Shown here piece by piece: positions 7,296 to 57,571 of a stretch of DNA of 64,000 nt. The stretch is from Deltaproteobacteria bacterium. Lineage in GTDB: Bacteria; Desulfobacterota; Desulfomonilia; UBA1062. Made by a program: the position numbers and the translations under genes. Positions within the stretch are counted from its first letter, which is position 1. Each line of letters begins with the position of its first letter. Under the pieces are notes generated by a model. It did not search any database and was not told the origin of the DNA. It saw only the letters and a program-made list of their open reading frames with translations. The DNA is taken from the NCBI GenBank assembly GCA_018433085.1, contig JAHDRW010000011.1, forward strand, positions 55,224 to 119,223, in the 5' to 3' direction.

Positions 7296-9026
7296 ATGAA
7301 AGGATACCCGATTATGCAAAAGGAGGAAACAGGAATTTTCGGCAAGGCCAAGGGCAGGAGGGTAGGACCTCAAGGTGCGGACGGTGTGCACGCTTCACAG
7401 TGGTATCCCGCGATGCACCCGGGACGGTCACAGGTGCCGTTCCTGCGTTCTCCCCGGGCGATTACCGGGCACATGAACGCCAGAATCCGCGCGATATGGC
7501 ATGCGAGTGACTACCAGGGCAAGGATTTCAGCCCCTTCGAGGTCTCGTCCATACCGAGCAAGCACAAGCTCGCCCAGGTGCTGGCCTGCGGTCTGAAGGC
7601 CGCAGTGGCGACCTACTCACAGCACTGGCAGGGCATGTATCTTGACTGGACCTTCAACCATCACATCGAGGAGGCCTTTTCGAAATTCGGTATCATGGCG
7701 AATTCGGAAAAGTTCGTGAAAAACGCATTCGCTACCGTGGTGCTCTTCAATACCGGTTATGCCGGAGTGTTCATGGACATGCTCAAAAGCCGGCGCCGTC
7801 TTCTCCCGCCCAGTATGGAGAGCCTCGAAAACCTCGACATGGGCACCTTCGAGCACAACTTGAGGAGCTCGGTCGGCGCGGTGCTCGGAGGCGAGTACGG
7901 GGTGAACGTCATCCGGTGCTCTCTGGCGAAGCCCCTGGTGGCAGAGGCGAACAGGCCGGGCTATGAGGCTCTGCGCGGCGTGGCTTCAGTGGAGGGCATG
8001 GACCCGAAGGCCTCCATCACCTGTATCCTGCAAATCGGGCTCAAGCAGTCCGAAGACCGCGCCAGTTTCGACCAGGAGATGATGGACCTCGCGGCCGCCA
8101 AGATCATCGAGCGCAAGAGCGAACGGCGCAACGCGGATTTATCGCGCCAGGTCCCGGTGGTCGTCATGTCGCGCTATTTTCTCTCCGTGAACCGGGAGCT
8201 GCGAAAGGCCGGGCTGCACGGCATCGTCAAGACCCTGGTGATCGAAGGGAACACTCCCCCGGGCAAGACCATGCTTGCATCCATGAGGGATTGCATAGGG
8301 GACGGGCTCAGGAAGTGCTATGACGACATCCTTGCGGCATATCCGGCCAATCTGGCCGACAGCGGCACCGATCTGGACCTCGGCACGTACCGCGACATGG
8401 CGAAGCTCGCGTGCGACCTCGGACTGAAGGTGCTCAAGCCACGCGAAGACGGACACAAGATGCTCTTCATCTATATCGACATGGAGGCCCTCCAGAAAAA
8501 GGGCATCCCGATCGATGTCGCGGAGCAGACAGCGGGCAGCGCCATTCAGGCCGGGCTCAACTCCGTGCATCTCGATGGGACCACGAATGTACCGGACGAG
8601 CAGGACCTGCTTTACGGCGCCTTCTGTATGACCGGCCCGATCCACTCGGCCGAGCTCCTGGATACGGACGATCAGCTCAAGCGAGGGTGGGGCCAGGGAT
8701 TCTGGAACATCCTTGCGCCGGAGCTGCCGCCGACCAACAAGATGCTCGCCCTTATCGCCGTCTCGGCCAAGAGCGAGCAGGATGCCTTTATCGCCGAGAT
8801 ACAGGCATTGAACGAGCGGAAATCGGTCAACGAGATCTTCTGGTACAAGACCTGGAACCATCCGCAGGGAAAGCGTCTGGACATCCCTCAATGGGTATCC
8901 TATGCCCATGTGCTCGACGTGCTCCCGATTCCCGGTAACTCCATTGCCCATGCGGAAGAGCCTATCCCGGAGCACCTGCCCGAAGATCACCCCCTGACCA
9001 GGGAGTTCAGGCAGATGATTAAGTGA
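7296..9026 (+). CDS. Hypothetical protein (576 aa) with no recognisable motif; start uncertain
   Basis: Long ORF with coding-like composition, ended by a rho-independent terminator. An AAGGAGG lies just inside the 5' end, so the true start may be further downstream (for example the ATG at about 7470). Confidence 0.5.
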   Translation: MKGYPIMQKEETGIFGKAKGRRVGPQGADGVHASQWYPAMHPGRSQVPFLRSPRAITGHMNARIRAIWHASDYQGKDFSPFEVSSIPSKHKLAQVLACGLKAAVATYSQHWQGMYLDWTFNHHIEEAFSKFGIMANSEKFVKNAFATVVLFNTGYAGVFMDMLKSRRRLLPPSMESLENLDMGTFEHNLRSSVGAVLGGEYGVNVIRCSLAKPLVAEANRPGYEALRGVASVEGMDPKASITCILQIGLKQSEDRASFDQEMMDLAAAKIIERKSERRNADLSRQVPVVVMSRYFLSVNRELRKAGLHGIVKTLVIEGNTPPGKTMLASMRDCIGDGLRKCYDDILAAYPANLADSGTDLDLGTYRDMAKLACDLGLKVLKPREDGHKMLFIYIDMEALQKKGIPIDVAEQTAGSAIQAGLNSVHLDGTTNVPDEQDLLYGAFCMTGPIHSAELLDTDDQLKRGWGQGFWNILAPELPPTNKMLALIAVSAKSEQDAFIAEIQALNERKSVNEIFWYKTWNHPQGKRLDIPQWVSYAHVLDVLPIPGNSIAHAEEPIPEHLPEDHPLTREFRQMIK

Positions 9027-10953: not shown

Positions 10954-12420
10954 ATGGCAGGAATCACTTCCTTCGGGGGATACATACCCCGTTACCGGCT
11001 CAGCAGGATGGTTATCGTCCAGAACATGGCCTGGTATTTTCCCGTGATCATGGCGGTCGCAGGCGGTGAAAAGGCGGTGGCCAACTGGGATGAAGACTCG
11101 GTGAGCATGGCCGTTGCCGCTGCATACGACTGTATGGCCGGGCACGACAGGAAAGGGCTCGACGCCCTCTATTTCGCATCGACCACGATGCCATTCGCCG
11201 ACAGGCTCAATGCGGGTATCGTCGCAGCCGCGCTCAACATGCGTGAAAACGGCGTGTCGAATGCGGACTTTGCATCCTGCATGAAGGCAGGCACAACCGC
11301 AATGATCTCCGCCCTGGACTCGGTGCAGGCCGGGTCGCGGAAAAACGTGCTGGTGGCGGCATCCGACCAGCGGCGCACGAAAATGGCCACCATGTTCGAG
11401 ATGTTCTACGGCGATGGCGCCGCTGCGGTGCTCATCGGCAACGAGGATGTCGTCGCCGATTATCTGGGCAGCTACTCCATCAACTGCGACTTCGTGGATC
11501 ACTACCGGGGGCAGACCAAGGAGTTCGATTACGGCTACGAAGAGCGCTGGGTCAGGGATATCGGCTACGGAAAGGTCATCCCGGAGGCGATATCCGGGTT
11601 CCTTGCGCAGAGCGGCATGAAGATCGGGGACTTCGCCAAGGTAATCTATCCCTGCTATTTCGGGGGCACACATAAGGCCATTGCCGCAAGGCTCGGAATC
11701 GAAAAGGAAAAGGCGCAGAACAATCTACACGCAGTCTGCGGCGATACGGGAACGGCGCATCCCCTGGTGATGCTGGTCGCCGCACTTGAAGAGGCAAATC
11801 CCGGCGACAAGCTCCTGGTGGCGGGTTTCGGTCAGGGCTGCGATGTGCTGGCCTTCGAGGTGACCGATAAAATCAAGGATATGAAACCGCGCACCGGCAT
11901 CAAGGGATCTCTAGCCAATCGGGTGGATCTGACGAACTACCAGAAGTTCGCCAAATTCAGAGACCTCATCACCGCAGACCTGGGCATCCGCGGAGAGGCC
12001 AACCCGAATACGTCGCTCACCGTGCTCTGGCGGAAGCGTAAAATGCTGCTCGGCCTGGTGGGAGTGCGGTGCAAGAAGTGCGGGACTCCGCAGTTCCCCG
12101 TATATCCGACCTGCGTGAATCCCAAGTGCTGGAGCGTGAACGACTTCGAGGACTATGAGTTCTCCGACAAGGAGGCGAAGATCCTCATGTTCACCGGCGA
12201 TATGCTCTCCCCCTCAGTCGACCCTCCGGCGGTATACGGGCTGATCGCATTCGAGGGCGGAGGCAGGACCATGTTCGACTTCACGGACTGCGATCTCAAC
12301 CAGATCAAGGTGGGCATGAAGACCAGAATGTCGTTCAGAAGGAGGCAGACCGACAACATGCGGGGATTCACCGGATACTTCTGGAAGGCTGTCCCTCAGG
12401 TGGAAGGAGGCGATAAATAA
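10954..12420 (+). CDS. HMG-CoA-synthase-like condensing enzyme (archaeal type) fused to a C-terminal DUF35 zinc-ribbon/OB-fold domain
   Basis: The N-terminus MAGITSFGGYIPRYRLS matches the archaeal HMGCS signature (GxxGYGxYIPRYRI). A catalytic-Cys region SCMKAGT is present. The C-terminal ~130 aa carry CKKCGTPQFPVYPTCVNPKC (rubredoxin-like Zn ribbon) followed by an OB-fold, as in DUF35/BbsA. A GGAGG RBS precedes the ATG. Confidence 0.65.
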   Translation: MAGITSFGGYIPRYRLSRMVIVQNMAWYFPVIMAVAGGEKAVANWDEDSVSMAVAAAYDCMAGHDRKGLDALYFASTTMPFADRLNAGIVAAALNMRENGVSNADFASCMKAGTTAMISALDSVQAGSRKNVLVAASDQRRTKMATMFEMFYGDGAAAVLIGNEDVVADYLGSYSINCDFVDHYRGQTKEFDYGYEERWVRDIGYGKVIPEAISGFLAQSGMKIGDFAKVIYPCYFGGTHKAIAARLGIEKEKAQNNLHAVCGDTGTAHPLVMLVAALEEANPGDKLLVAGFGQGCDVLAFEVTDKIKDMKPRTGIKGSLANRVDLTNYQKFAKFRDLITADLGIRGEANPNTSLTVLWRKRKMLLGLVGVRCKKCGTPQFPVYPTCVNPKCWSVNDFEDYEFSDKEAKILMFTGDMLSPSVDPPAVYGLIAFEGGGRTMFDFTDCDLNQIKVGMKTRMSFRRRQTDNMRGFTGYFWKAVPQVEGGDK

Positions 12421-13628
12421 TGGCTACGGGAATCAGAGACAAGGTCGCGATTATCGGAATGGGGTGCTCGCAGTTCGGCGAGCGCTGGAACGACGGTCCG
12501 GAAGAGCTCATGGTCGAGTCCTTCACGGAATGCCTTCAGGACGCCGGCATCGAAAAGACGGACATCCAGGCCGCGTGGTTCGGATCCTGCTTCGACGAGG
12601 TCGGCGTCGGGAAGAGCGCTTTGCCGGCCTCCATGTCCCTGAGGCTCCCCAACATATCGGTCACCCGGGTGGAGAACTACTGCGCCAGCGGCACCGAGGC
12701 GTTCAGGGGGGCGGTCTATGCCGTGGCGTCCGGGGCATACGACATCGCTCTCGCCATCGGGGTGGAGAAGCTCAAGGACATCGGCTACGGCGGACTGCCC
12801 GAGTTCAGTACCGCCATGGGCACGTTGAACCAGCTCTGGATGGCGAACTTCACCGCCCCGGGCGGCTTCGCCATGCTGGCGACCTCTTATGCGGCGAAAT
12901 ACGGCATCGACATGAGTGAGCTCAAGCGGGCAATGGCCCACGTGTCGGTCAAGAGCCATGCGAACGGGGCGCTCAATCCAAAGGCGCATCTGAGAAAGCC
13001 GGTGACCGAAGAGCAGGTACTCAATGCCCCTCAAATCGCTTATCCTCTGGGACTCTTCGACTGCTGCGGCGTGAGCGACGGTTCTGCATGCGCCATCGTC
13101 ACCACCCCGGAGATCGCAAAGAGCCTCGGGAAAAAGGATCTGGTCACGGTAAAGGCCCTGCAGCTCTCTCTGAGCAATGGCACCGAGTTTGCCTTCGACT
13201 GGGACGGGGACCACTTTATCACCACATCCAAGGCGAGTTCGGAGGCCTACAAGGAGGCGGGCATCAAGAATCCGCGGGGGGAGATCAGCATGATGGAGGT
13301 GCACGACTGCTTCTCCATAACCGAGCTGGTGACCATGGAGGACCTGCACATCTCCGAGAGGGGAAAGGCCCCCAGAGATGTGATGGACGGGTTCTTCGAC
13401 CTGAGGGGCGGCGGGGTTCCCTGCCAGGTGGACGGCGGGCTGAAGTGCTTCGGTCACCCCATCGGGGCCTCAGGCCTGAGAATGCTCTACGAGATGTACC
13501 TGCAGCTCCACGGCAGGGCCGGCCAGAGGCAGCTCAAGGATCCGAAGTTCGGGCTCACCCACAACCTCGGCGGGTTTCCCTTCATGAACGTGTGCAGCGT
13601 CGCCATCATCGGGAAACAGGATGCATAG
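12420..13628 (+). CDS. SCPx-type (SCP2) thiolase / acetyl-CoA C-acyltransferase
   Basis: N-terminus MATGIRDKVAIIGMGCSQFGERW and active-site Cys in ENYCASGTEAF, typical of SCP2 thiolases that partner HMGCS/DUF35. The ATG overlaps the upstream stop (TAATG). Confidence 0.8.
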   Translation: MATGIRDKVAIIGMGCSQFGERWNDGPEELMVESFTECLQDAGIEKTDIQAAWFGSCFDEVGVGKSALPASMSLRLPNISVTRVENYCASGTEAFRGAVYAVASGAYDIALAIGVEKLKDIGYGGLPEFSTAMGTLNQLWMANFTAPGGFAMLATSYAAKYGIDMSELKRAMAHVSVKSHANGALNPKAHLRKPVTEEQVLNAPQIAYPLGLFDCCGVSDGSACAIVTTPEIAKSLGKKDLVTVKALQLSLSNGTEFAFDWDGDHFITTSKASSEAYKEAGIKNPRGEISMMEVHDCFSITELVTMEDLHISERGKAPRDVMDGFFDLRGGGVPCQVDGGLKCFGHPIGASGLRMLYEMYLQLHGRAGQRQLKDPKFGLTHNLGGFPFMNVCSVAIIGKQDA

Positions 13629-13660
13629 GAACAGATCCTTTCATAAAAAGGAGGTGAGAT

Positions 13661-14110
13661 ATGGCTGATTTATCCAAGGTAGGCACCGAGTACACCCCCA
13701 TTGTCTGGGAGGTGGAGCGGGGCAAGATCAGGGAGTTCGCGAAGGCCATCGGCGATTTCAACCCGATCTATCTTGACCGCGAGGCTGCGGTGAAGGCGGG
13801 ATATAAAGACACGCCGGCGCCGCCGACGTTTCTGACCGTGCCCATGATGTGGTGCGGAAAGATGCCGGACTTCATCAACGATCTGAAGATCAACTTCATG
13901 ATGGTGCTTCACGGTGAGGAAGAATACGAATACTACCGGGAGATCTATCCGGGCGATGTGATCACGGGCACTCCGAAGGTGACCAAGATGGAGGAAAAGA
14001 CGAGCAAGTCCGGCTCCAAAATGGACATGATCACCCTTGAGGTGCTCTACATCAACCAGAAGGGCGAAGAGGTCGCCAAGGCCAGATCGCTGCTCGTCGA
14101 AAGGAAATAG
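13661..14110 (+). CDS. MaoC-like hot-dog protein: non-catalytic N-terminal half of hydratase 2
   Basis: Motif GDFNPIY lacks the catalytic His of the hydratase-2 signature. The fold is a hot-dog fold. An AGGAGG RBS is present. Confidence 0.7.
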   Translation: MADLSKVGTEYTPIVWEVERGKIREFAKAIGDFNPIYLDREAAVKAGYKDTPAPPTFLTVPMMWCGKMPDFINDLKINFMMVLHGEEEYEYYREIYPGDVITGTPKVTKMEEKTSKSGSKMDMITLEVLYINQKGEEVAKARSLLVERK

Positions 14111-14119
14111 GGGGCAGTC

Positions 14120-14554
14120 ATGATACAGGAAAAATACTTTGAAGATATAAACGTGGGCGACACGGTCATCGAACTGGTGAAGGGACCTCTGCAGAAGCTG
14201 CAGCTCGTCATGTACGCAGGGGCCTCGGGCGATTTCAATCCCCTGCACACGGACGACGACTTTGCGAAGGCGGTGGGCATGAAAGACGGCGTGATCGCCC
14301 ACGGCATGTTCATCATGGGCTGCGTGGGTCAGGCCGTCACCGACTGGGTGCCGAAGAAGCGGCTCAAGCGCTACGGTGTGCGATTCGCGGGCATGTCCAA
14401 ACCGGGAAGCACCATTACCATTTCCGGCACGGTCACCGACAAGCGCGTGTCCGATGGAGAGAATATCGTCACCTGCGCCGTGGTGGCCAAGGACGAGCAG
14501 GGTGACGTAAAGGTGAGCGGAAGCTTTGATGCGGCCTTGCCCGGCAAGGCATAG
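14120..14554 (+). CDS. MaoC-like (R)-specific enoyl-CoA hydratase: catalytic hydratase-2 half
   Basis: Complete hydratase-2 motif GASGDFNPLHTDDDFA with the catalytic D and H. Confidence 0.75.
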   Translation: MIQEKYFEDINVGDTVIELVKGPLQKLQLVMYAGASGDFNPLHTDDDFAKAVGMKDGVIAHGMFIMGCVGQAVTDWVPKKRLKRYGVRFAGMSKPGSTITISGTVTDKRVSDGENIVTCAVVAKDEQGDVKVSGSFDAALPGKA

Positions 14555-14583
14555 TGCAGGGAAAGAAGAGGGAGGAATCTATA

Positions 14584-15489
14584 ATGAAAATCGATTTTAC
14601 CGGAAGAGTGGCAATCGTAACGGGTTCGGGGGCCGGTCTGGGCAAATGCTATGCCCTCGAGTTGGCGAAGCGCGGGGCCAAGGTGGTGGTGAACGACCTG
14701 GGCGGTTCCCGTGACGGAAAGGGATCAAGCGATGCCGCAGCGAACAAGGTGGTGGACGAGATCAAGGCCCTGGGCGGCGAAGCGGTACCGAACTACGACA
14801 ACGTGGCCACCGTGGCGGGAGGCGCGAACATCGTGAAGACCGCGGTGGATGCCTTCGGCAAGGTGGATATCGTCATCAACAATGCAGGGATCCTGCGCGA
14901 CAAGTCATTCACCAAGATGGAAGAGGAGAACTGGGACGGCGTGATGAACGTCCACCTGAAGGGCGCCTATTGCGTAACCAGACCGGCCTTTGAAATCATG
15001 AGGGCCAACGGGTACGGCAGGGTGGTGATGACAACGTCGGGAGCCGGACTGTTCGGCAACTTCGGGCAGTCAAATTATGCAGCGGCCAAGATGGGGCTCA
15101 TCGGGCTGACAAACGTGCTCAAGATCGAGGGCGAGAAATACAATGTCAAAACCAATGTGATCGTGCCCGTGGCCGCTTCCCGGCTCACCGAAGACGTGCT
15201 TCCCCCCGAGTTCTTCGAGAAGATGAAGCCCGACTTCGTGACCTCTGCGGTGCTCTATCTGTGCTCGGAGCAGTGCACGGACAACGGGATGATCATCAAT
15301 GCGGCCCTGGGATACTACAGCCGTTCCGCCGTGGTGACGGGCCCCGGTGCCATTCTGTCGGACGGGAAGAGGGTTCCCACGCCCGAGGAGGTTATGGAAA
15401 GCTGGAACAAGATAACGAGCCTTGAAAATCCCAAGTATTTTGGTATGCTGCCTGAGATGTTCGGCGTGCTGGGGCCCGTTCTTCAGTAG
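14584..15489 (+). CDS. SDR-family (3R)-hydroxyacyl-CoA dehydrogenase, homologous to the dehydrogenase domain of multifunctional enzyme 2 / HSD17B4
   Basis: Co-linear similarity to human HSD17B4 residues 1-300: VAIVTGSGAGLGKCYALELAKRGAKVVVNDLGG, NNAGILRD, YSAAK and a C-terminal SCP-less tail. The start was moved to the ATG at 14584, which has a GGAGG RBS. Confidence 0.8.
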   Translation: MKIDFTGRVAIVTGSGAGLGKCYALELAKRGAKVVVNDLGGSRDGKGSSDAAANKVVDEIKALGGEAVPNYDNVATVAGGANIVKTAVDAFGKVDIVINNAGILRDKSFTKMEEENWDGVMNVHLKGAYCVTRPAFEIMRANGYGRVVMTTSGAGLFGNFGQSNYAAAKMGLIGLTNVLKIEGEKYNVKTNVIVPVAASRLTEDVLPPEFFEKMKPDFVTSAVLYLCSEQCTDNGMIINAALGYYSRSAVVTGPGAILSDGKRVPTPEEVMESWNKITSLENPKYFGMLPEMFGVLGPVLQ

Positions 15490-15549
15490 GCGGGCGAACA
15501 GTACCGGCCGGGCCGGCCGCAGCCGGAAATTCCAGAGCAGAATGGAGAA

Positions 15550-16188
15550 ATGGTGAAAACGACACTCGAAAAGGCGAAGAAAGACCCCGAATCGATGAAG
15601 GCGAGGATCCTGGCGGTTGCCAGAAGGATCTTCGGCGAATACGGTTTCCACGGAACCACCATGCGGATGATCGCCAAAGAGGTGGGCATCGACATCTCCA
15701 CGCTCCACTACCACTGGGGAGAAAAGAAGGATCTTTACGAGGCGGTGATCATCGACATCAACAACGATCTGGGGAAGAAGTTCATCGAGGTGGAGCGGAT
15801 CATTCACGGCCGCCCCCTCCAAGAACGGATCGCCATCGGCATCGACACCATGGTGGACTATCTCTTTCTTCATCCCGAGATCTCGAACATGGTGCTGTTC
15901 CGCTATTTCGGAAAGATCAGGCACGAAGAGCCGGTCGATCTCAAGGTGCCCGAGTTCACCATCGATATCGTACGCTCCATGGGGCTCAAGCAGGACAAGG
16001 AAAACATCAGCTTCTCCATGACCGCCGTGCTGACCATCATGAACTCCATTCACAGCTTCATTTCAGGGGAGAACTTCTTCTCCCCCATGGTCACGCAGAA
16101 CAAGGACGAGTACATCACCATTGTGAAAGAGACGCTCAAGGGCATTTTCATCCCTGCGTTCACCCAGGATACGAGCAGGTTCGAATAG
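15550..16188 (+). CDS. TetR/AcrR-family transcriptional regulator
   Basis: N-terminal HTH ARILAVARRIFGEYGFHGTTMRMIAKEVGIDISTLHYHW; about 210 aa. Confidence 0.8.
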   Translation: MVKTTLEKAKKDPESMKARILAVARRIFGEYGFHGTTMRMIAKEVGIDISTLHYHWGEKKDLYEAVIIDINNDLGKKFIEVERIIHGRPLQERIAIGIDTMVDYLFLHPEISNMVLFRYFGKIRHEEPVDLKVPEFTIDIVRSMGLKQDKENISFSMTAVLTIMNSIHSFISGENFFSPMVTQNKDEYITIVKETLKGIFIPAFTQDTSRFE

Positions 16189-16231
16189 GCCCTCGGCCGG
16201 ACAGCAGTTGGTCACAGGTTTTTTTATACCG

Positions 16232-16322
16232 GGAGGATGGATCTGTCTTCCTCCTCCGCTAAAGAAAATGCGGAGGTCGGGCCCTCCTCCGAATGAATGC
16301 AGTGAAGACAGATCCGTCCTCC
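16232..16322 (+). promoter_or_regulatory. Structured leader: a 19-bp imperfect inverted repeat (16232..16250 with 16304..16322) enclosing mutually exclusive CCTCCGC/GCGGAGG/CCTCCTCCG pairings
   Basis: Segment B (GCGGAGG, 16270..16276) can pair with either segment A (16253..16259) or segment C (16284..16291). The element lies between the TetR stop and the acyl-CoA dehydrogenase start at 16486. Confidence 0.35.
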
Positions 16323-16485
16323 GTTTGAAGGGTGCATCAGGGACAGGCTCACGTTCCGCATCGTCTCCATAATGCAGCACGGGCGGGCGAGAAGTCTCCG
16401 GACTCACTGGTAGCCTCCCGGCCTTAAAAGAGATGTTCTTTACTGGAGATGCGGAGATTCACATTACCGACGAAGGAGAAACGGC

Positions 16486-17628
16486 ATGGAAATCATCCAG
16501 TATACGGACGAACACAGAATGTTCCGGGATTCCGTGAGGAAATTCCTGGAAAAGGAAGTTATACCCCATGTGGAAGAATGGGAAGAGGCGGGTATCACCC
16601 CCCGGAGTGCGTGGAAGAAGCTGGGCGAGCAGGGCTTTCTCGGCATGGGCGTCCCCGAGGAATACGGGGGCCTCGGTGCGGATTTTCTCTACTCCGTGAT
16701 CATGACCGAGGAGATGAGCCGGACCAACCACATGGGTTTATGCACCGCGCTGCACAGTGATATCGTGATCCCCTACATTTTGTCCTACGGTTCCGAGGAG
16801 ATCAAGAAGAAATACCTTCCGGGCTGCGTGTCGGGAGATACCATCGCCGCCGTGGCCATGACCGAGCCCAACACGGGCAGCGACCTGGCCGCCATCCGGA
16901 CCACGGCCGTTGATGACGGCGATCACGTCGTCATCAACGGGCAGAAGACCTTTATCAGTAACGGCATCAACTGCGGGGTCTGCGTGACCGCTGTCCGCGA
17001 TCCCCAGGTGGAAGATCCGTACCGCGCCATCGACCTCTTTGTCATCGAAGAAGGAACACCCGGCTTCGAGAAGGGCAAGCAGATCAAAAAGGTCGGGTGG
17101 CACAGCCAGGATACGGCGGAGCTGTATTTCAGCGACTGCCGGGTGCCCAAGTCAAACCGCCTGGGCGAAAAGGGAACGGGATTTCTGCACCTCATGGAGA
17201 AGCTCCAGCAGGAGCGGCTCATGTGCGCGGTCGGGGCCCAGGCCCTGGCGGAGTACATGCTCGAGATTACACTGGCATACTGCAAGGAGCGCACCGCCTT
17301 CGGGAGGCCTATCTCCAAATTTCAGCACAACCAGTTCGAGCTGGTCGATATGGCCACGGATCTCAAGCTCGGGCGCACCTTCCTGGACAAGCTGATCGTG
17401 GACCACATGGAGGGCAGAAACGTGGTGGTGGAGGTGTCCATGGCCAAGTTCTGGATCACCGAGATGGCGAGCCGGGTGGCGGACCGCTGCATGCAGCTTC
17501 ACGGCGGCTACGGATACTGCGACGAGTATCCCATCTCGCGCGCATGGCGGGACATCCGGGTGACGCGGATCTTTGCGGGGACCAACGAGATCATGCGCCA
17601 GGTCGCGGCCCGCTTCATGGGCCTGTAG
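16486..17628 (+). CDS. Acyl-CoA dehydrogenase
   Basis: ACAD family N, middle and C domains, with the signature region AMTEPNTGSDLAAIRTTA and a C-terminal catalytic-Glu region. An AGGAGA RBS is present. Confidence 0.85.
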   Translation: MEIIQYTDEHRMFRDSVRKFLEKEVIPHVEEWEEAGITPRSAWKKLGEQGFLGMGVPEEYGGLGADFLYSVIMTEEMSRTNHMGLCTALHSDIVIPYILSYGSEEIKKKYLPGCVSGDTIAAVAMTEPNTGSDLAAIRTTAVDDGDHVVINGQKTFISNGINCGVCVTAVRDPQVEDPYRAIDLFVIEEGTPGFEKGKQIKKVGWHSQDTAELYFSDCRVPKSNRLGEKGTGFLHLMEKLQQERLMCAVGAQALAEYMLEITLAYCKERTAFGRPISKFQHNQFELVDMATDLKLGRTFLDKLIVDHMEGRNVVVEVSMAKFWITEMASRVADRCMQLHGGYGYCDEYPISRAWRDIRVTRIFAGTNEIMRQVAARFMGL

Positions 17629-17679
17629 GGGAGGCGAACGGGCGGGTGACCCGCCCGGAAATCACGAGGAGTCGATGCC

Positions 17680-18861
17680 ATGGCAGGACCGCTTCAAGGA
17701 ATGAAGATTCTGGATTTCACCACGCTGCTGCCCGGACCTTTCTGTACCATGAATCTTGCCGACATGGGCGCGGAGGTACTAAGGATAACATCCGGCTCCA
17801 GGCCGGATATGGCGGCGTTTGCCCCGCCGTTCTTTCCCGGGACCGACCTGTCCTTTGCCACCGCGTATCTGGGACGGGGAAAACGCTGTCTTGCGCTCAA
17901 CCTGAAGGACGAACGGGCCGTGCGCATCGTGCACCAGCTGCTCAAAGACTATGACATCCTGATCGAGCAGTTCCGCCCCGGCGTCATGGCCAGGTTCGGT
18001 CTCGATTACGAGAGCCTCCGGGAGGTCAATCCCGCGCTGATCTACTGCTCCATCACCGGTTACGGCCAGGACAGCCCCATCAGCAGCCGGGCCGGTCACG
18101 ACATCAACTACCTGGCGCGGTCGGGTCTCATGTCCTACTCCGGAAAAACGGAAACCGGGCCTATGCTCATGGGCATGCAGATCGCGGATGTGGCGTCCGG
18201 ATCGAACAATGCCATGATTGGAATCCTTGCTGCGGTGATCAGCCGCGCGAACACCGACAGAGGCCAGCACGTGGACATCTCCATGACCGACGGTGCGATC
18301 GCCTTCAATGCCCTGGTGGCCGGGGCTTACCTGGTGGACGGCCAGGAGCCCGGGCGCGAGGGATTCCTCTTAAACGGCGGGTCGGTCTACGACTTTTATG
18401 AAACAAAAGACGGCGGATATGTGAGCTTCGGCGGACTGGAGCCGCAGTTCTTCGCCGCCTTCTGCCATGCCATCGGACGTCCGGATCTGATCGAGGGGGG
18501 CGTGGCCCCGCAGGATCTCCACAAGGTCAAGGATGAGGTCCGGTCCGTCATAAAAACCAGGACCCGGGACGAGTGGATGGAAATTTTCGACGATACCGAT
18601 GCATGCGTGGATCCGGTCCTTTCCCTTTCCGAGGCCCTGGATGATCCTCACGCAAAGAAGCGGGGGCTGGTGGTGGAGCTGGAACTCGCCGGAGGTGGTC
18701 ATGTTCGGCAGCTTGCCAGCCCCATCAGGTTCTCTGAGACCAGGCAGGTATACACGAAGGCCGGTGTGCAGGCAGGCGCCCATACCGCAGAGGTGCTCCG
18801 GGATCTGGGTTATTCGGAGAAAGATATCCAGACCCTTGAGAGCGAGGGGCTTTTCCGCTGA
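17680..18861 (+). CDS. Family III CoA-transferase (CaiB/BaiF / alpha-methylacyl-CoA racemase-like)
   Basis: N-terminus LQGMKILDFTTLLPGPFCTMNLADMGAEV and the family-III fold. A GAGGAG RBS is present. Confidence 0.8.
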   Translation: MAGPLQGMKILDFTTLLPGPFCTMNLADMGAEVLRITSGSRPDMAAFAPPFFPGTDLSFATAYLGRGKRCLALNLKDERAVRIVHQLLKDYDILIEQFRPGVMARFGLDYESLREVNPALIYCSITGYGQDSPISSRAGHDINYLARSGLMSYSGKTETGPMLMGMQIADVASGSNNAMIGILAAVISRANTDRGQHVDISMTDGAIAFNALVAGAYLVDGQEPGREGFLLNGGSVYDFYETKDGGYVSFGGLEPQFFAAFCHAIGRPDLIEGGVAPQDLHKVKDEVRSVIKTRTRDEWMEIFDDTDACVDPVLSLSEALDDPHAKKRGLVVELELAGGGHVRQLASPIRFSETRQVYTKAGVQAGAHTAEVLRDLGYSEKDIQTLESEGLFR

Positions 18862-19042
18862 TCAAGGTACATGTTCGTGTCAAACCGCTCGTGCAGAGTG
18901 CGCGGGTAGATCATCCGGTTGCCCCATATTCAAGGGCAGGGTAACGTTTGACGGCACGGAGTTTTAGACGTGCGCAGCCGGGCCGTGAAGAGAGGTGCTT
19001 CAGGGGAAGCGGCACAGCCCTTTTCAAGAGGAGGAAAGTCAA

Positions 19043-19876
19043 ATGAGCGCGAGAAAAGACGAAACCGGTACGGCCGCCGGGCCCTGCCTGAAGGTCGAGA
19101 AAAGCGGACACGTGGCCTGGCTGGTGCTGAACCGGCCCCGGCAGCGCAATACCATGACCCCGGAGTTCTTCGATGAGATCACCAGGCGCTTCGAGGAATT
19201 CGATGCCGATCCGGATGTGCGGGTGGTGGTCATCCGGGCGGAGGGGAAGAGCTTTACCGCGGGTCTGGATCTGGTGGCGGCCCAGGCGCTTCTCGGCGAC
19301 GGGTCGGCCGTGTATCGGGACTGGCTGTACCGGAAGATCAAGCAGCTCCAGGCAAGCATGACAGCCGTCGAAAAGTGCAGGAAACCCGTCATCGCGGCGA
19401 TCCACGGGCACTGCATCGGCGGCGGGGTGGACTTGACCAGCGCCTGCGACATCAGGATCGCGTCAGAGGATGCGGTCTTTTCCATCCGGTAGACGCGCAT
19501 CGCCATCATCGCGGACATCGGAACCCTGCAGCGCCTCCCGTACATCGTCGGGCAGGGCTGGTTCAGGGAGCTGGCGCTTACGGGAAGGGACTTCACCGCA
19601 GGCGAGGCCCTGCAGATGGGATACATCACCCGGCTCTGTCCTGACCGGGACGCATTGATGGAGCAGGCGCGCACGCTCGCCGAAGAGATCGCCGGGCTGT
19701 CCCCGCTGGCCGTACAGGGGGTGAAGGAGGTGGCGAATTACACCCGTGACCACGGACTTCACCAGGGCCTGGAATATGTGGCCCAGAGAAATGCGGCCGT
19801 CGTACCTAATGAAGACATGATCGAGGCGGTCGCGGCCTTTCTCGAAAAGCGGACACCGCAGTTCAAGGGCAGATAG
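19043..19876 (+). pseudogene. ECH1-like delta3,5-delta2,4-dienoyl-CoA isomerase (crotonase family) interrupted by one in-frame TAG at 19490..19492
   Basis: A single frame encodes CRKPVIAAIHGHCIGGGVDLTSACDIRIASEDAVFSIR*TRIAIIADIGTLQRLP ... SPLAVQGVK ... AAFLEKR. It is co-linear with ECH1 (CPKPVIAAVHGGCIGGGVDLVTACDIRYCAQDAFFQVKEVDVGLAADVGTLQRLP). The TAG aligns with the catalytic Glu (GAG to TAG, one substitution). Confidence 0.7.
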
Positions 19877-20018
19877 GAAAGTGTGCCCGGTAAGGGGCGA
19901 AAGGAGGTGGAATACAAAAGCAGAGAAGGTGACAGCCATAGTCTTGCTTTAAGCAGCACCTTTGCAATGGATTTCAGCATTTGTGACGGTACGGAAGATC
20001 AATCACAAGGAGGGAGAT

Positions 20019-21698
20019 ATGTCCTTTGAACGATTATGGCACAAATCGTATGTGCCGGGCGTACCCACGGATTTCGAGGTGAAAAGGATCACCATGGCGG
20101 AAAGGCTCAGCAAGATTGCCGCGAAATATCCGGACCGTGTGGCCTTTATCTACATGGGGAAGAAGATCACCTATCGTGAGCTGGAAGGACTGGTAAACCG
20201 ATTCACGAGAGCCTTGGTCGATATCGGGGTCAAGGAGGGCGATAAGGTGGGAGTGCTTCTGCCCAACATCCCCCAGACGGTCATCGCCAACCATGCCATT
20301 TACCGTGCCGGGGCGGTCACGGCCATGAACAATCCTCTCTACGCCGAGCTGGAGCTGACGCATCAGCTCCACGACTCGGACGCCACGGTGCTGATCACGC
20401 TGGACCTGCTCCTTCCCCGGGCGCTCAAGATAAAGCCGGGGACGAAGATCAGGACCATCATCACCTGCCACATCAGCGACTACCTCCCATTTCCCAAGAA
20501 GCAGCTCTTTCCCTATGTGAAGAAAGGCATGTTCCGGAAGGTGGAGCCCCAGCCGGATGTCTACCAGTTCATGGATCTCATAGGCAAATATCCCGATGGG
20601 CCGGTGGAAAACAAGGCCCGGTGGGATGCGCTGGCCGCGCTGCTCTACACGGGGGGTACCACGGGCGTCAGCAAGGGGGCAATGCTGACCCATGGCAACA
20701 TCTCCTCGGTCGTCCAGCAGTTCACGGCCTGGTTTCCGGATCTCCAGGATACATACGAGAACCTCCTGGGCATCTATCCGATATTCCATTCCGCAGGATA
20801 CTCGGTGGGCCAGAACCTCCCGATATGGAACGGCTGGTGCTGCACGCTCGTGCCAAGGCCCGAGCCGGGTGTCATCGTGGAAATGCTCTCCAAGTTCAAA
20901 CCCACCTTTCTCCCTGGGGTGCCCACCATCTTTACCGGGCTGCTGAAGAACGAAAAATTCCGGAAGATGAACCTCTCGCATATCAAAGGCTACTTCGGCG
21001 GGGCCGCGCCGCTTCCCGAAGATACCCTGAGCCAGCTCAAGCAGCTCCACGGCGCGATCATCTACGACGTCTACGGGGCGACCGAGAATACGGCATTCGC
21101 AACCGTGACACCCTGGGGCGGGAAGGTCAAGATCGGAACCGTGGGAGTGCCGCTTCCCGGTACGGATATCAAAATTGTGGATCTGGATACGGGTACTCGC
21201 GAGCTTCCTCCGGGAGAGGCCGGGGAAATCTGCATCAAGGGCCCTCAGGTCATGACCGGATACTACAAGAAACCGGAGGAAACAGCGCTGACCCTGAGGG
21301 ATGGATGGTTTTACACCGGCGACATCGGGTTCCTGGATGAAGACGGCTATCTGACCATTTCGGATCGCAAGAAAGACATGATCTGCGCCAGCGGCTTCAA
21401 TATCTATCCCAAGGAGGTCGACGAGATACTCTTCAGCCATCCCAAAATCCTGGAGGCATGCTGCATCGGAGTTCCGGACGAGTACCGCGGGGAGACGGTG
21501 AAGGCCTATGTCGTCGTGCAGCCGGGAGAGACGCTCACGGAGCAGGACGTGATCTCGTACTGCAAGGGGAAAATGACCGGCTACAAGGTGCCGACACAGG
21601 TGGCTTTCATTGATCAGCTCCCCAAGAGCACCATCGGCAAGATCATGCGGCGTGAGGTCAGAGACATGGATGCGAAAAAAAAGGAAGGGAGATTATGA
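20019..21698 (+). CDS. Long-chain acyl-CoA ligase (AMP-binding, FadD-like)
   Basis: AMP-binding motif LLYTGGTTGVSKGAML and C-terminal DRKKDMI...GFNIYP. The start was moved to the ATG at 20019, which has a GGAGGGAG RBS. Confidence 0.85.
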   Translation: MSFERLWHKSYVPGVPTDFEVKRITMAERLSKIAAKYPDRVAFIYMGKKITYRELEGLVNRFTRALVDIGVKEGDKVGVLLPNIPQTVIANHAIYRAGAVTAMNNPLYAELELTHQLHDSDATVLITLDLLLPRALKIKPGTKIRTIITCHISDYLPFPKKQLFPYVKKGMFRKVEPQPDVYQFMDLIGKYPDGPVENKARWDALAALLYTGGTTGVSKGAMLTHGNISSVVQQFTAWFPDLQDTYENLLGIYPIFHSAGYSVGQNLPIWNGWCCTLVPRPEPGVIVEMLSKFKPTFLPGVPTIFTGLLKNEKFRKMNLSHIKGYFGGAAPLPEDTLSQLKQLHGAIIYDVYGATENTAFATVTPWGGKVKIGTVGVPLPGTDIKIVDLDTGTRELPPGEAGEICIKGPQVMTGYYKKPEETALTLRDGWFYTGDIGFLDEDGYLTISDRKKDMICASGFNIYPKEVDEILFSHPKILEACCIGVPDEYRGETVKAYVVVQPGETLTEQDVISYCKGKMTGYKVPTQVAFIDQLPKSTIGKIMRREVRDMDAKKKEGRL

Positions 21699-22498
21699 GC
21701 GGGAAAATGGGAGAATTCAGAACACTCATCTTCGAGGAAAAAGAACCGTCCATCGGGCTGGTCACCATGAATCGCCCCGATCAGCTCAACGCCATCAACC
21801 TGGCGATGCTGGAGGATTTCGAGCAGCTGTGCGAGGCATTGACCCGGGACGATTCCATCAGGGTTCTCGTCATTACCGGCGCCGGCAGGGGATTCTCCTC
21901 GGGGGCGGACCTGAACGACGCCGTTGTCCATAAGGACACGGATGCGTTCGCCGACCCCGAGAACTTCCTGAAGATCGTTCAGGAGCGATATGCGTCGCTG
22001 GTGCTGAATTTGAGAAAGATTCCCCAGCCTATCGTATCAGCGGTGAACGGGCCCGCCGCAGGAGGTGGCTTTGCCATGACCCTGGCAAGCGACATCCGGG
22101 TGGCGAGCCCTGAGGCATACTTCGTGGCATCGTTCATCAACATCGGGCTTTCGGGCGGCGAGCTCGGGTGCTCCTATTTTCTGCCCCGGCTGGTGGGGCT
22201 CTCGCATGCGTCCGACATGATGTACACCGGCAGGAAGGTCAGGGCGCAGGAGGCCGAGAAGATGGGGCTGGTCAGCACGGTGGTGCCTAAGGAGGAGCTG
22301 ATCGAGACTGCCCTTTCCTATGCGCGGATGATGACGGGCAAGAGCGTCGGCGGCCTGAAACTCACCAAGCGGGTGATTGAAGACAATCTTCATGCATCCT
22401 CGCTCCAGAGCGCGATAAATCTCGAAAACCGCAACCAGACCGTCATGGTGTTCTCGGGTGAGTTTTTCAAGCTGATACAGTCGTTCTACAAAGAATGA
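21695..22498 (+). CDS. Enoyl-CoA hydratase/isomerase (crotonase family)
   Basis: Crotonase fold: VITGAGRGFSSGADL and the oxyanion-hole region. The ATG overlaps the ligase stop (ATGA). Confidence 0.8.
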   Translation: MSGKMGEFRTLIFEEKEPSIGLVTMNRPDQLNAINLAMLEDFEQLCEALTRDDSIRVLVITGAGRGFSSGADLNDAVVHKDTDAFADPENFLKIVQERYASLVLNLRKIPQPIVSAVNGPAAGGGFAMTLASDIRVASPEAYFVASFINIGLSGGELGCSYFLPRLVGLSHASDMMYTGRKVRAQEAEKMGLVSTVVPKEELIETALSYARMMTGKSVGGLKLTKRVIEDNLHASSLQSAINLENRNQTVMVFSGEFFKLIQSFYKE

Positions 22499-22594
22499 TC
22501 TTCCTGCGAGGGCTGCCGGATAACCGCGCCTGCCAGGGAATGGTCTCGATAAGAAGGCGGATGTGCGGCTGTCTGGGATGACCGGCGAGGACGT

Positions 22595-24474
22595 TTGAAC
22601 AAGGAGAGGACTGTGCATACATATCGTGTCGATGAGCGGGATCTCCAGTTCGTTCTATTCGAATTCCTGGAGCTGGACAAGATGAATAGATTCAAGAGGT
22701 ATGAATCCTTTGACCGAGCCGTATACGAGGAGACCATCCATCTGGCATACAGGATCGCGGCGAAGCATCTGTTCCCTGTGAATACTTCCGGCCATAGACA
22801 GGGCTGCTCCTATGATCCGGAGACCAGATCCGTGCGTCTTCCCGCCGGATATGCGGATGCCTCTCGGGCCCTGCTCGATGCGGGATTTTTAAGCATCTCG
22901 GATGATCCCGATATCGGTGGGACCGGCATGCCGCTTGCCATACAGGCATGTTCATGGGAGATATGCTGTGGCGCGGGCGGAGCGCTCATGCTTTTCCTGA
23001 TGCTCGGGCATGGGGCGGCGCTCATGATCCAGCACTTCGGATCTCCTGAACAGAAGGCGCTCTACGTGCCGAGGATGCTTTCAGGAGAGTGGGGGGTACC
23101 ATGTGTCTCACTGAACCTGAAGCCGGTTCGGATGTGGGCGCCCTCAAAACAAAGGCTGTTCCTCAACCGGATGGGAGCTATCGAATTACGGGTCAGAAGT
23201 GCTTTATCACCAACGGGGATCAGGATATCACCAAGCAGATCGTTTATCCGGTCCTGGCGCGCATCGAGGGGGATCCTCCGGGGACGAAGGGAATTTCCCT
23301 GTTCCTCGTTCCCAAGTATCTGGTGCATGAGGACGGCACCCTCGGCGAACGAAACGATGTGTTCTGCACCGGCATCGAGAAAAAGATGGGCGCGCACGGG
23401 TCCGCCACCTGCTCCATGTCCTTCGGCGAGGATGACCGGTGCACTGGGTATCTACTGGGGCAAAGGGGCAGGGGGATGAATATCATGTTCCAGATGCTCA
23501 ACGAGACGCGCCTTGAGGTGGGGATCATGGCCCTGGGAGGTTCCTCGGCTGCATATCTCCATGCAGTCGATTATGCGCGCACCAGGCAGCAGGGCTCGCA
23601 TGTGAGCCGGATGTTCGATCCGGCGGCTCCGAAGGTGCCCATTATCGAGCATCCCGACGTCCTGAGAATGCTTTTATGGATGAAGTCCTGGGTGGAGGGC
23701 CAGCGGATGCTCTCGTACTACCTTTCTCAGCAGATCGATCTCCAGAACCTGCTGGAAGGAGATGAGGCCAGGGAAGCGAAGGCCCTTGTGGATTTTCTCA
23801 TTCCCGTGGTCAAGGCAGGCAATTCGGACATGGCGTGGCGGATTACCTCGGAGGCGATCCAGGTTCACGGCGGTTACGGCTACTGCTCAGAGTATCCCGT
23901 GGAGCAGATCGCCGTGGACTGTAAGGCCCTGTGCATCGTGGAAGGAACCAACGGCATCCAGTCTCTCGATCTGGTCATGAGAAAGATTCTGATGAATCCG
24001 GAACAGTACAACTATTGTGTAGTGAAAGAAAGGATCCGCAAGACGATTGATAGCGCTGCAGGAATTGTCCATGAGGCACACCTTCGCTCGCTGGCCGAGG
24101 CGATTGACCTCATGGACGCGGCTGTGGATTTCATGGAGCAGTTGATGGAATCGGGAGACTTCAGGGTTCTGCTGGTGAATGTGGATCCGTTGCGCAGGGC
24201 GATCCTTTACCTGGTGATCGCATGGATGCAGCTGTGGTGCCTGAAGATCGCGAAGCCGAAGCTTGCAGCTCTCACCGGCGGCGCGACGGGCGCTGATCTG
24301 GAATCGGTTCTGGAGGGAAGTCCGGAGGCAGGCTTTTACCACGGCAAGGTATGCGCTTCCGAGTTCTGGCTTGCCACGGAATTTCCCAAGTACTTTGGAA
24401 AGATCGAAGCCATCTTGCAGGGAGGGAGAATGGACCTCCGGCAGGCAGAAACCGTTTTTCCGGCGTTTTCTTAG
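22595..24474 (+). pseudogene. Large FadE-like acyl-CoA dehydrogenase (~626 aa) split by a frameshift in a G6 run (23091..23096)
   Basis: The N-terminal part ends ...RMLSGEWG in one frame. The C-terminal part continues GGTMCLTEPEAGSDVGALKT... one frame over. Seven Gs (TGG GGG GGT ACC ATG) would restore the continuous SGEWGGTMCLTEPEAGSD signature. An alternative GTG start with an AGGAG RBS lies at 22613. Confidence 0.7.
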
Positions 24475-24610
24475 CATCTGGGAAAGTGCCCGGGGAAGAG
24501 GAGACCAAAAGGGGGCATGCACGTGAAGGCGCTGAACAATGCCTCCTGCAGCGCCTTGCTGCCTCAAAAGAGGTTTCTTCGGCCCCGGGTACGGTCTTCT
24601 CCGCCGGCTG

Positions 24611-25024
24611 CTACTGGAATGATATGTCGTAGACCCCGTTCTCTTGGTCGCGGCAGGTACCGCAGCCTATCATCTTCATATCGCCCATGCCCTTTGACCT
24701 GAACTCGGCCGTGATATCGCACTCGAGAAAGCGCATGGCCTTGTTGCCGAGGTGGGCCTTGCCGGAAAACTGGAGCATGGGCAGGTTCGAAAGCTCGATG
24801 ACGGGATTCCCCCCCGTGGTCACGAGCGTGAAAGGGCCGGTGACGTCGCCGTAGGGGGTGCCGGAGAAGGCGATGGTCCCTGTCTTGTACTCCGAGTCAA
24901 AGCTCACGGTGCCGTAATACATGTGGCCTTTCTGGTCGACCAGGACCGCCTCATTGCTCCATGTGCACCCGGCGAGCAGTGCCGCGAGCACGACAGCGGC
25001 AAGCACGAGAAATCCAAGCTTCAC
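24611..25024 (-). CDS. Small hypothetical lipoprotein
   Basis: Signal peptide with a lipobox (LLAGC). Size is 137 aa and no known motif is present. Confidence 0.5.
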   Translation of the reverse strand: MKLGFLVLAAVVLAALLAGCTWSNEAVLVDQKGHMYYGTVSFDSEYKTGTIAFSGTPYGDVTGPFTLVTTGGNPVIELSNLPMLQFSGKAHLGNKAMRFLECDITAEFRSKGMGDMKMIGCGTCRDQENGVYDISFQ

Positions 25025-25551
25025 GATAAAGCCTCCTCACTTGAAAAACAGCAAACGAAACGGATAAAGCCCAATCTTGTATAAAAATGCCCGGGTTGTC
25101 AATCCCGCGATCAGGATGAGCCGGCCGGTGCACCCGGATCAGGGATCGTTGAGGCTGCCCCCGGGGCAGGGATCGGGCGAGTTGGAGAGTCGCGGCCGGT
25201 ACATGGGACCCGGAAGATCTGGCGCCTCCGAATGCGGGCGACTATACCGCTGAAGGCAGCATGTGCCGGGATAGACGATTGAGCCGAGCCCGGATGGGGG
25301 ATGATGGATACTGCAAAAAAAGGTTTGAGCTGTCCGGCAGGCCGTTTAAGGAAGAAAAAGTAGTGTCCCCTGTGCTTTAATCCATAATCGAATCTCGTAG
25401 TGCCTATACACTATACGATCATACCAGGTGCACTACAGATATCACCTTTTATAAGCCCCCTTTTTTTCACCATTAATACGCGCACAGGAGACCTATAAAA
25501 TATACTCCACAAGGACTGGAAAAATCAAGGAATAATTTACTTTTCGTTCAC

Positions 25552-30670: not shown

Positions 30671-30916
30671 ATCTCCCTTGTCCGGGAATTCTCACGACCC
30701 GGACGGTATAAGGTTTCTCCTATGAAGCTTAACCTTCATCGCCGCCGAGTCAAGTGTCCTTTTCGGAGAGCGAACCTTTTTTCTAAAATACAGTCTTTTC
30801 CAGCCGGATTTCCGATCCGGGATGAGACCGGTCCGAAAAAGGGATGCGGCCTCCTCTTCGATGCACAACGGTCCGATCCCGCGCCAGGGGTTTCACAGGA
30901 ACGGTATGGCAGGGGT

Positions 30917-31315
30917 TCAGACGAGGGTGATCAGGACCTCGCGGGTTGCCCTGGGGCCGTCGAACTCGCAGAAAAAGATATTCTGCCAGGTGCTGAGGAT
31001 GAGCCGGGAGTCTTCCACCGGGACCACCTCGGAGGGGCCGATGATGCCCGCCTTGATGTGCGCGTCACCGTTGCCGTCGACGCGGTCGTGCAGCCAGACG
31101 CCCCGGGGAACGAGTTTTTCCAGGCAGGTGATCACGTCGGCGGGGATGTTGGGGTCCCAGTTTTCCTGGATCATGAGGGCGGCGGTGGCGCCCATGGCAT
31201 AGAGCGCGCAGAGCCTCGAGCCTGCCCCGTGTTCGGCGACCACGGCGCGGACCCGCTCGGTGATGTCCACGAGCTCCTGTCTTTCACGGGTCGGGAAGGT
31301 TATGGAAAATCTCAT
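30917..31315 (-). CDS. YjbQ/UPF0047 family protein (secondary thiamine-phosphate synthase-like)
   Basis: MRFSITFPTRERQELVDITERV ... HDRVDGNGDAHIKA ... EFDG motif pattern of YjbQ. The start was moved to the ATG at 31315. The track's TTG-initiated extension was dropped. Confidence 0.7.
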   Translation of the reverse strand: MRFSITFPTRERQELVDITERVRAVVAEHGAGSRLCALYAMGATAALMIQENWDPNIPADVITCLEKLVPRGVWLHDRVDGNGDAHIKAGIIGPSEVVPVEDSRLILSTWQNIFFCEFDGPRATREVLITLV

Positions 31316-31478
31316 GGGCACCCCTTTCCCCCATGCCATATCACCGCTGCAACCAGGAGACAAGACGTTCTGTTTCGGAAGAGCACGGCCTTTGCCTTGG
31401 GAATCAATATCTTGATAATGGAACTATTCCATGCAATACTGCAACCCGCATTTCTGAAGAGGAGGAACATGTCAGGAT

Positions 31479-33137
31479 ATGAGAAGCGATCGTACCAAGA
31501 AATCTTATGAAAAGGCCCCTCACCGGTCCCTGCTCAAGGCGAACGGCTTTACCGACGAAGAAATTGCGCGGCCCTTTGTGGGAATCGTGAACTCGGCGAA
31601 TGAAATCATCCCCGGGCACATTCATCTCAATCAGATTGCCCAGGCCGCAAAGGACGGGGTACGCATGGCGGGCGGCACGCCCATGGAATTCTCCGTAATC
31701 GGCATCTGCGACGGCATCGCCATGAACCACGCGGGCATGAAGTACTCCCTGCCGTCCAGGGAGATCATCGCGGACTCCATTGAGCTCGTGGCCATGGGGC
31801 ACGCCTTTGACGCCATGGTCTTTGTCCCCAACTGCGACAAGATCGTCCCGGGCATGCTCATGGCGGCCCTGCGGCTCAACATCCCAGCCGTTATCGTCTC
31901 CGGGGGGCCCATGCTCGCCGGCAGGCTGAAGGGCAGGGCCGTGGATCTGATCAGTGTATTCGAGGGCATCGGCAGGCTTAAAGCAGGCGCGATCACCGGG
32001 GAAGAGCTTCGGGAGCTCGAGGGATGCGCCTGTCCCACGGCCGGGAGCTGCTCGGGCATGTTCACCGCCAACTCCATGAATTGCCTCACCGAGGCCCTGG
32101 GCCTGGGCCTGCCGGGCAACGGAACCGTGCCCGCCGCCTTCTCCGAGCGGATCAGGCTTGCCAAGCACGCGGGCATGAAGGTGATGGAGCTCCTGGAAAA
32201 GGACATCAAACCCCGGGACATCGCGAGCCCGAGCGCCTTCAACAACGCCATTGCCGTGGACATGGCCTTGGGCTGTTCCACCAACACGGTGCTTCATGTC
32301 CCGGCGGTGGCCTATGAGGCGGGCATCGAGCTCAGCCTGGACGACTTCGACCGGATGAGCAAGCGGGTTCCTCACCTGTGCAATCTCTCCCCGGCCGGAC
32401 CGCACCACATCGAGGACCTCTACTACGCGGGCGGGATCCAGGCGGTGATGAAGCGGCTGGAGCCCCTGGGTGTCTTGGATACGGGTGTGGTCACTGCAAC
32501 GGGTGAGACGCTGCAGGAAAATCTCGCCCGGGCCGAGATCGTGGACCCCGAGGTGATACGTCCCCTGGAAAGCCCCTACCACCAGGAGGGCGGGATCGCG
32601 ATCCTGCGCGGCTCCCTGGCGCCCGACGGGGCGGTGGTGAAACAGTCGGGCGTGCTGCCGGAGATGATGAAGCGCGAGGGCACGGCCCGGGTGTTCGATT
32701 CCGAGGAGGAGGCGGCCGACGCCATCCTCGCCGGAAAGATCCGGGCGGGGGACATCGTGGTCATCCGGTACGAGGGGCCCAAGGGTGGGCCGGGCATGCG
32801 CGAGATGCTCACGCCCACCTCTTCGATCGCGGGCATGGGGCTGGACAGGGACGTGGCGTTGATAACGGACGGCCGGTTCTCCGGCGGTACCAGGGGTGCG
32901 GCCATCGGGCACTGCTCGCCCGAGGCGGCCGAGGGCGGGCCGATCGCCCTGGTGCAGGAAGGCGACCGCATCGGAATCGACATCCCTGCCAGGAAGATCG
33001 ATCTCCTCGTCGACGAGGCCGAGCTCTCCAGGCGCGGGCAGGCCTTCAGGCCGCCGGAGAAAAAGCTCACCGGCGTGCTGAAGCGCTATGCGCGGGAGAC
33101 CCTCTCGGCAGACAAAGGGGCCCGATACAGAGACTGA
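31479..33137 (+). CDS. ilvD: Dihydroxy-acid dehydratase
   Basis: IlvD/EDD family: N-terminal [13 protein letters not shown], the Fe-S ligand region CDKIVPGM and C-terminal GGPIALV; 552 aa. Confidence 0.9.
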
Positions 33138-47615: not shown

Positions 47616-47820
47616 AACCAGACCTCCTGCTGTAGGGACATTCATATAAGAGTAACAGATAGGCTTCAGAAACACAAAAAGAATATCCCCCTGGCGGAGA
47701 ATGTGGCATCAGGCCAAATATTTTTCAGGAAGGCATGGTTTTGATGAGCAGCAAATCCTGGATTATCCTGAAGGAATAGGTATAATATCCTGCAAACCAG
47801 AGAAAGAGGAGGTTTTGATC

Positions 47821-51992: not shown

Positions 51993-52022
51993 TATTTTTA
52001 TTAAAGATTTTCCAAAAGAAGG

Positions 52023-53482: not shown

Positions 53483-53492
53483 TCGTTCAGTT

Positions 53493-54961: not shown

Positions 54962-54972
54962 GCCGCTTCGTC

Positions 54973-57541: not shown

Positions 57542-57571
57542 AAGCGTAATATCTCTAACTCTGTAGTCGTT

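Follow-up and report, generated by a model that had tools for sequence, protein, structure and literature searches.

The locus analysed here raises the question whether an amber codon within a conserved crotonase gene marks the genuine loss of an enzyme, a fault in the recorded sequence or a stop that is decoded in the living cell. The gene is located in a window, i.e., the whole stretch of DNA under study, of 64,000 nucleotides. A sequence-only reading of this window had claimed that a single frame from 19043 to 19876 gives a complete, co-linear crotonase with one TAG at 19490..19492, and both the translation of this frame and its protein domain match agree with that description. The open reading frame (ORF) starts on the plus strand with an ATG at 19043, which has a Shine-Dalgarno-like GAGGAGGAAAG on its 5' side, and runs over 277 codons to its natural TAG at 19874..19876. 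Its sole interior stop is the TAG at 19490..19492, which represents codon 150. Upstream of this stop, codons 1-149 (19043..19489) comprise the oxyanion-hole region and Asp130, while codons 151-277 together with the natural TAG (19493..19876) form the 3' part, which contains Asp158. From this 3' part, gene callers delivered a separate ORF of 86 amino acids at 19616..19876.

If read through the stop, the product matches the Pfam model ECH_1 (PF00378) from position 2 to 250 of 251 with an E-value of 3.7e-52, and its score of 177.6 bits against a gathering cutoff of 27 places it in the crotonase superfamily. Since this match spans both halves, they belong to one co-linear gene. The repaired protein was also recognized by the NCBIfam model NF004794 (328.4 against a cutoff of 308), which bears the generic name 'crotonase/enoyl-CoA hydratase family protein'. 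When all six frames were scanned for stops with at least 70 codons of coding-like sequence on each side, four sites of the window were flagged. The three sites besides the crotonase TAG, at 14108, 15487 and 35654, were rejected as interior stops, as they turned out to be ordinary ends of adjacent genes with their own start codons. Thus, the crotonase TAG is the unique interior stop of the window and not a chance alignment.

To which residue the stop corresponds was addressed by comparison with homologous proteins and solved structures. A search of 5.8 billion proteins revealed 7,108 relatives, of which the best 120 were used. Nearly all of these 120 are full-length, with about 248-309 amino acids, and the closest among them are 92-94% identical to the crotonase at the protein level. 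Sixteen homologues with 65-94% identity were taken from this set and aligned: all 16 possess Glu at the position of the stop, while Asp130 and Asp158 are invariant. The local motif of the window reads DAVFSIR(stop)TRIAIIADIG, and its counterpart in the relatives is FSIRETRI(A/G)IIADxG. Among solved structures, the nearest ones are the dienoyl-CoA isomerases 1DCI from rat (4e-63) and, both from human, 2VRE (2.7e-61) and 8SK6 (2.8e-61), which outrank the enoyl-CoA hydratases with the exception of EchA21 (8SOY, 1.6e-60). 1DCI and the crotonase share 44% identity over 251 residues, and the stop aligns exactly to the Glu of FFQVKEVDVGLAADVG in the former. Asp130, position 150 and Asp158 correspond to the 1DCI chain positions 124, 144 and 152 or, after addition of an offset of 52, to 176, 196 and 204. 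The catalytic triad of the rat delta3,5-delta2,4-dienoyl-CoA isomerase (DCI) reportedly consists of Asp176, Glu196 and Asp204. We take Asp130, codon 150 and Asp158 to be the equivalents of this triad, with which their spacing agrees.

While the family thus has the complete Asp/Glu/Asp triad of DCI, this genome retains both aspartates and carries a stop in place of the glutamate. That the gene is ECH1-like and that the stop falls exactly on the catalytic Glu had both been put forward by the sequence-only reading, and the rat and human dienoyl-CoA isomerases as best solved relatives, together with the alignment to Glu196 of 1DCI, bear this out. Judged by its sequence, the gene is a disabled ECH1/DCI-like member of the superfamily, and the intact enzyme would presumably act as a dienoyl-CoA isomerase. 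Two further crotonases of the window, at 21695..22495 and 47701..48537, share only 26 and 23% identity with the interrupted one. They were considered as paralogous back-up and dismissed, because neither has the Asp/Glu/Asp triad; consequently, no back-up copy is visible locally.

At the DNA level, four genomes were available for comparison: L001 and L002 are metagenome-assembled genomes (MAGs) of Deltaproteobacteria, L003 and L004 are MAGs of the Syntrophaceae type. L001 and L002 are the nearest to the window, with about 92% nucleotide identity, and within the crotonase gene this value ranges from 89 to 93%. All four genomes have GAG at codon 150, and their alignment with the crotonase gene comprises 837 columns and no indel. 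Furthermore, 80 genomic loci were fetched, 68 of which matched the strict motif, the other 12 being outside the count; all 68 encode Glu (36 GAG, 32 GAA) and none has a stop. The comparison of the orthologous codon in relatives, which had been proposed as a check of the sequence-only reading, hence gave Glu in 16/16 proteins and 68/68 loci. As the nearest genomes carry GAG, one G-to-T transversion explains the stop, exactly as that reading had assumed.

The same alignments give a hint toward the age of the lesion. Using the Nei-Gojobori method against L001-L004, we obtained dN/dS values of 0.11-0.14 for the part before the stop and of 0.05-0.11 for the part behind it, while dS to L001 amounts to 0.2-0.4. 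Based on these values, purifying selection has acted on the 127 codons behind the stop during practically all of the period that separates them from the sister species. The low dN/dS downstream and the lack of indels imply that the stop is either very recent or not real. The gene shows what is expected of a recent pseudogene: its lesion is absent from close relatives and it is otherwise under purifying selection.

The crotonase gene is part of a plus-strand cluster of the acyl-CoA beta-oxidation type at 10954..24474, whose products were assigned with Pfam. The order starts with an ACP_syn_III/ChsH2-OB protein, followed by an SCP2-type thiolase, two MaoC hot-dog hydratase subunits, a short-chain dehydrogenase (SDR) and a TetR regulator. 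Next come an acyl-CoA dehydrogenase, a family III CoA-transferase, the interrupted crotonase, an acyl-CoA synthetase and the second crotonase, and a large, frameshifted FadE-like dehydrogenase closes the row. Over 13172..25269, L001 and L002 are collinear with the window, with about 92% of the nucleotides identical. As an observation in its own right, the segment 10954..15489 resembles modules for the beta-oxidation of steroid or branched side chains: its ACP_syn_III-like protein is fused to ChsH2 zinc-ribbon and OB domains, and the SCP2-type thiolase, a MaoC hot-dog pair (FAS1_DH_region and MaoC_dehydratas) and an MFE-2-like SDR accompany it.

The sequence-only reading had described the surroundings as an otherwise intact beta-oxidation operon, and this part of it does not hold. 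The FadE-like acyl-CoA dehydrogenase at 22613..24474 (plus strand), 3.6 kb downstream of the crotonase, harbors a -1 frameshift if compared to L001, L002 and L003, in which it is a single ORF of 624-625 codons. The frameshift site is a run of six G at 23091..23096 (plus strand), where L001 and L002 have seven (GAG TGG GGG GGT, encoding EWGG). Consequently, the Pfam domains of the dehydrogenase are split, the N domain being located in an ORF that ends at 23479 and the middle and C domains in the ORF 23089..24474. Insertion of one G at this run restores an ORF of 620 amino acids without stops. Behind the frameshift, dN/dS is 0.13-0.18, so that this lesion as well is either recent or an error. 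It was not found in a second assembly, and the fragments of the dehydrogenase are known solely from an NCBI contig of 128,804 bp, presumably the one from which the window was taken. Close to the GTG start at 22613, on its 5' side, the Shine-Dalgarno sequence of the dehydrogenase differs by one base at 22607 (AAGGAGA-GGA, compared to AAGGAGAGGGA in L001 and L002); this non-coding difference is probably harmless.

Several other features of the window lie apart from the cluster. A tRNA-Leu(CAA) at 51906..51992 is directly followed by a tyrosine integrase on the minus strand (52023..53129), and within 51906..59000 the GC content falls to 0.43-0.50 over about 7 kb. This stretch contains a serine-recombinase ORF of 229 amino acids (55700..56389), which has the resolvase domain and only the start of the Recombinase domain, an excisionase-like HTH_17 ORF (56386..56721), a T5orf172 protein (57572..58045) and a Fic remnant (58862..59305). 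Most likely, it is an integrated element of small size that has been degraded in part. The DNA polymerase I ORF at 36333..39338 comprises about 150 extra N-terminal codons in front of its 5'-3' exonuclease domain, and its start is probably located near 36775, just past the end of an ORF in another frame (36298..36771). At an E-value of 1e-5 or below, Pfam gave no match for the well-formed ORFs 7296..9026 (576 amino acids), 50558..51853 (431), 42221..42892 (223), 35657..36301 (214) and 30722..31510 (262).

Is the TAG then present in the organism at all? A consensus, sequencing or assembly error would mean that the organism has GAG and an intact enzyme, the T having arisen, for example, as an oxidative G-to-T artefact of library preparation at low coverage, and the G6/G7 frameshift of the dehydrogenase would then be a second artefact. 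Neither lesion shows secondary decay, as would be expected of consensus errors, and both are of an error-prone type, namely a G-to-T change and a change in homopolymer length, the latter being a classic kind of sequencing error. In addition, the sequence stems from a metagenome-assembled genome, and the TAG allele is known from only one NCBI contig and one run. However, a Logan assembly of this run, SRR13787012, yielded a contig (L081) that is 100% identical to 18747..20720 of the window over 1,974 bases, including the TAG, at which it is not broken. The crotonase fragments of 149 and 86 amino acids are accordingly on record from two sources, the NCBI contig and Logan SRR13787012, although this run may be the MAG's own source data, in which case the two assemblies would not be independent samples. 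Since a second assembler recovered the same base from a single run, an assembler artefact is disfavored. For accurate short reads, this concordance also speaks against a random base-call error. In the Logan pipeline, the k-mers of a contig must be seen at least twice. Moreover, the rest of the window is clean: there is no other interior stop, and the other large genes have full-length Pfam coverage. As these genes lack interior stops and domain-splitting frameshifts, the consensus is not generally poor. Altogether, we regard consensus error as a serious rival explanation, whose probability for the TAG is lowered by the concordant Logan assembly, so that it appears unlikely, if by no means negligible.

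Alternatively, GAG and TAG alleles could coexist in the population, with assemblers reporting the majority or an arbitrary one of them, and the null allele might be transient or mildly deleterious. Such a polymorphism would fit a very young mutation as well as the limited length of the Logan contig and its breaks at both ends, an effect known from strain variation. Yet neither assembly breaks at the TAG, and the repaired protein with Glu150 is on record in no source, as a collection of 15 billion proteins contained zero records of it. When the same strain was sought in the JGI metagenomes by a DNA pattern in which the G/T position was not fixed, zero matches were obtained. We therefore consider coexisting alleles improbable; they would in any case be a sub-case of a null allele and not a true alternative to it. 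A protein of 124 amino acids (P0122) was examined as a possible second truncated crotonase and rejected, since its last residue, 124 (GGGVDLT), lies ahead of the site in question; its source labels it 'partial', as would fit a protein truncated by the end of a contig.

Finally, the TAG might be decoded in vivo, through pyrrolysine, a strain-specific amber suppressor tRNA or context-dependent readthrough, and a full-length protein would be made. The pyrrolysine system is encoded by some Deltaproteobacteria, and the 3' part of the crotonase is intact and looks selected, which both would fit to such decoding. However, TAG is the normal terminator of four neighboring cluster genes at their expected ends, all on the plus strand: the SCP2-type thiolase (12420..13628), the MaoC N-subunit (13661..14110, TAG at 14108), the SDR (14554..15489, TAG at 15487) and the acyl-CoA dehydrogenase (16486..17628). 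Including these four, about 9-11 well-formed ORFs of the window end with TAG at places behind which the following gene brings a start codon of its own, and a genome-wide reassignment of this codon was rejected on these grounds. The TAGs at 14108 and 15487 were likewise discarded as further recoding sites, because behind the ends of the MaoC N-subunit and the SDR a new start codon opens a gene of another protein family. Furthermore, the position of the stop is Glu in all homologues checked, while near-cognate readthrough or pyrrolysine would not insert Glu and thus would hardly restore function. A recoded UAG should be conserved among orthologues; here, TAG was found in 0/16 proteins and 0/68 loci, and a degenerate pattern for TAG at the crotonase Glu codon of any family member gave zero matches in the JGI metagenome collection. 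The tRNAs encoded in the window are limited to tRNA-Met(CAT) and tRNA-Leu(CAA), and no tRNA with a CUA anticodon was detected within its 64 kb. No pyl genes were found among the about 50 window ORFs scanned against Pfam, and behind the TAG the RNA is not more strongly folded than shuffled sequences are (z = -1.28). We consequently deem decoding of the TAG very improbable. One might speculate that the amber codon is tolerated through a suppressor tRNA or pyrrolysine machinery encoded elsewhere in the genome, giving a full-length crotonase with a catalytic residue other than Glu. This scenario would possibly involve an altered chemistry and would account for a 3' half that looks perfectly preserved, but we regard it as very improbable, too. 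Independently of this issue, the window contains a SelB-type selenocysteine-specific elongation factor at 61937..63994, with GTP_EFTU, SelB wing and beta-barrel domains, whose ORF ends six bases before the window does. On account of this SelB, the organism probably decodes UGA as selenocysteine at some sites, which is unrelated to the TAG.

Of the options that the sequence-only reading had left side by side, a fresh nonsense mutation is therefore the best supported one, while a base-call error is weakened by the second assembly with TAG and readthrough found no support. In our opinion, the TAG is probably real and represents a loss-of-function allele of very recent origin, in a cluster on which selection is relaxed. 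A single G-to-T transversion would have turned the GAG of the catalytic Glu, equivalent to Glu196 of the rat enzyme, into an amber codon, and translation would end after residue 149. What remains would be a fragment without the catalytic Glu, without Asp158 as the third catalytic acid and without the entire C-terminal half. Because two of three catalytic acids and this half would be missing, the enzyme is expected to be dead, and we infer that the truncated product is inactive. The mutation would be too young for further damage to have accumulated in the 3' part. The second single-hit lesion in the same cluster suggests that the pathway is dispensable in this lineage or under its growth conditions and is starting to decay; selection on the cluster thus seems to be relaxed.

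For annotation, it follows that the crotonase is better marked as a pseudogene, or as a possible error, than recorded as fragments of 149 and 86 amino acids, as in existing gene calls, and the frameshifted acyl-CoA dehydrogenase at 22613..24474 deserves the same mark. Provided that both lesions are real, they give a hint that the cluster is dispensable in this Syntrophales-like lineage or under its enrichment conditions. The value of the finding is limited to annotation and to metabolic reconstruction from this MAG, for which it represents a small data point.

Compared to known systems, the crotonase resembles the ECH1/DCI enzymes of known structure (1DCI, 2VRE and 8SK6) in its Asp/Glu/Asp triad with the same spacing and in the matching motif GGGVD ... 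E ... (A/I)AD(V/I)GTLQRLP. It differs from them in being a bacterial protein of the Syntrophales/Smithellaceae clade, whose activity is predicted from sequence, and in having a stop as Glu codon in this genome. With the methylamine methyltransferase genes, in which UAG is decoded as pyrrolysine, it shares an in-frame TAG within a conserved ORF of an anaerobe. In those genes, however, the TAG is conserved across orthologues, while that of the crotonase occurs in a single genome, in place of a conserved Glu; in addition, the enzyme family is unrelated, and the window contains neither pyl genes nor tRNA-Pyl. The crotonase also resembles recent bacterial pseudogenes that result from a single nonsense mutation or a homopolymer frameshift, since here, too, one disabling change affects an otherwise perfectly conserved ORF without secondary decay and is accompanied by a second single-hit lesion in the same pathway cluster. 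Such single-hit pseudogenes are commonplace in bacterial genomes and MAGs. Nothing sets the crotonase apart from them, and the only curiosity is the hit on a catalytic residue. As GAG is one substitution away from TAG, this hit is unremarkable, a coincidence without mechanistic consequence. The crotonase lesion is thus an ordinary feature of an already known kind.
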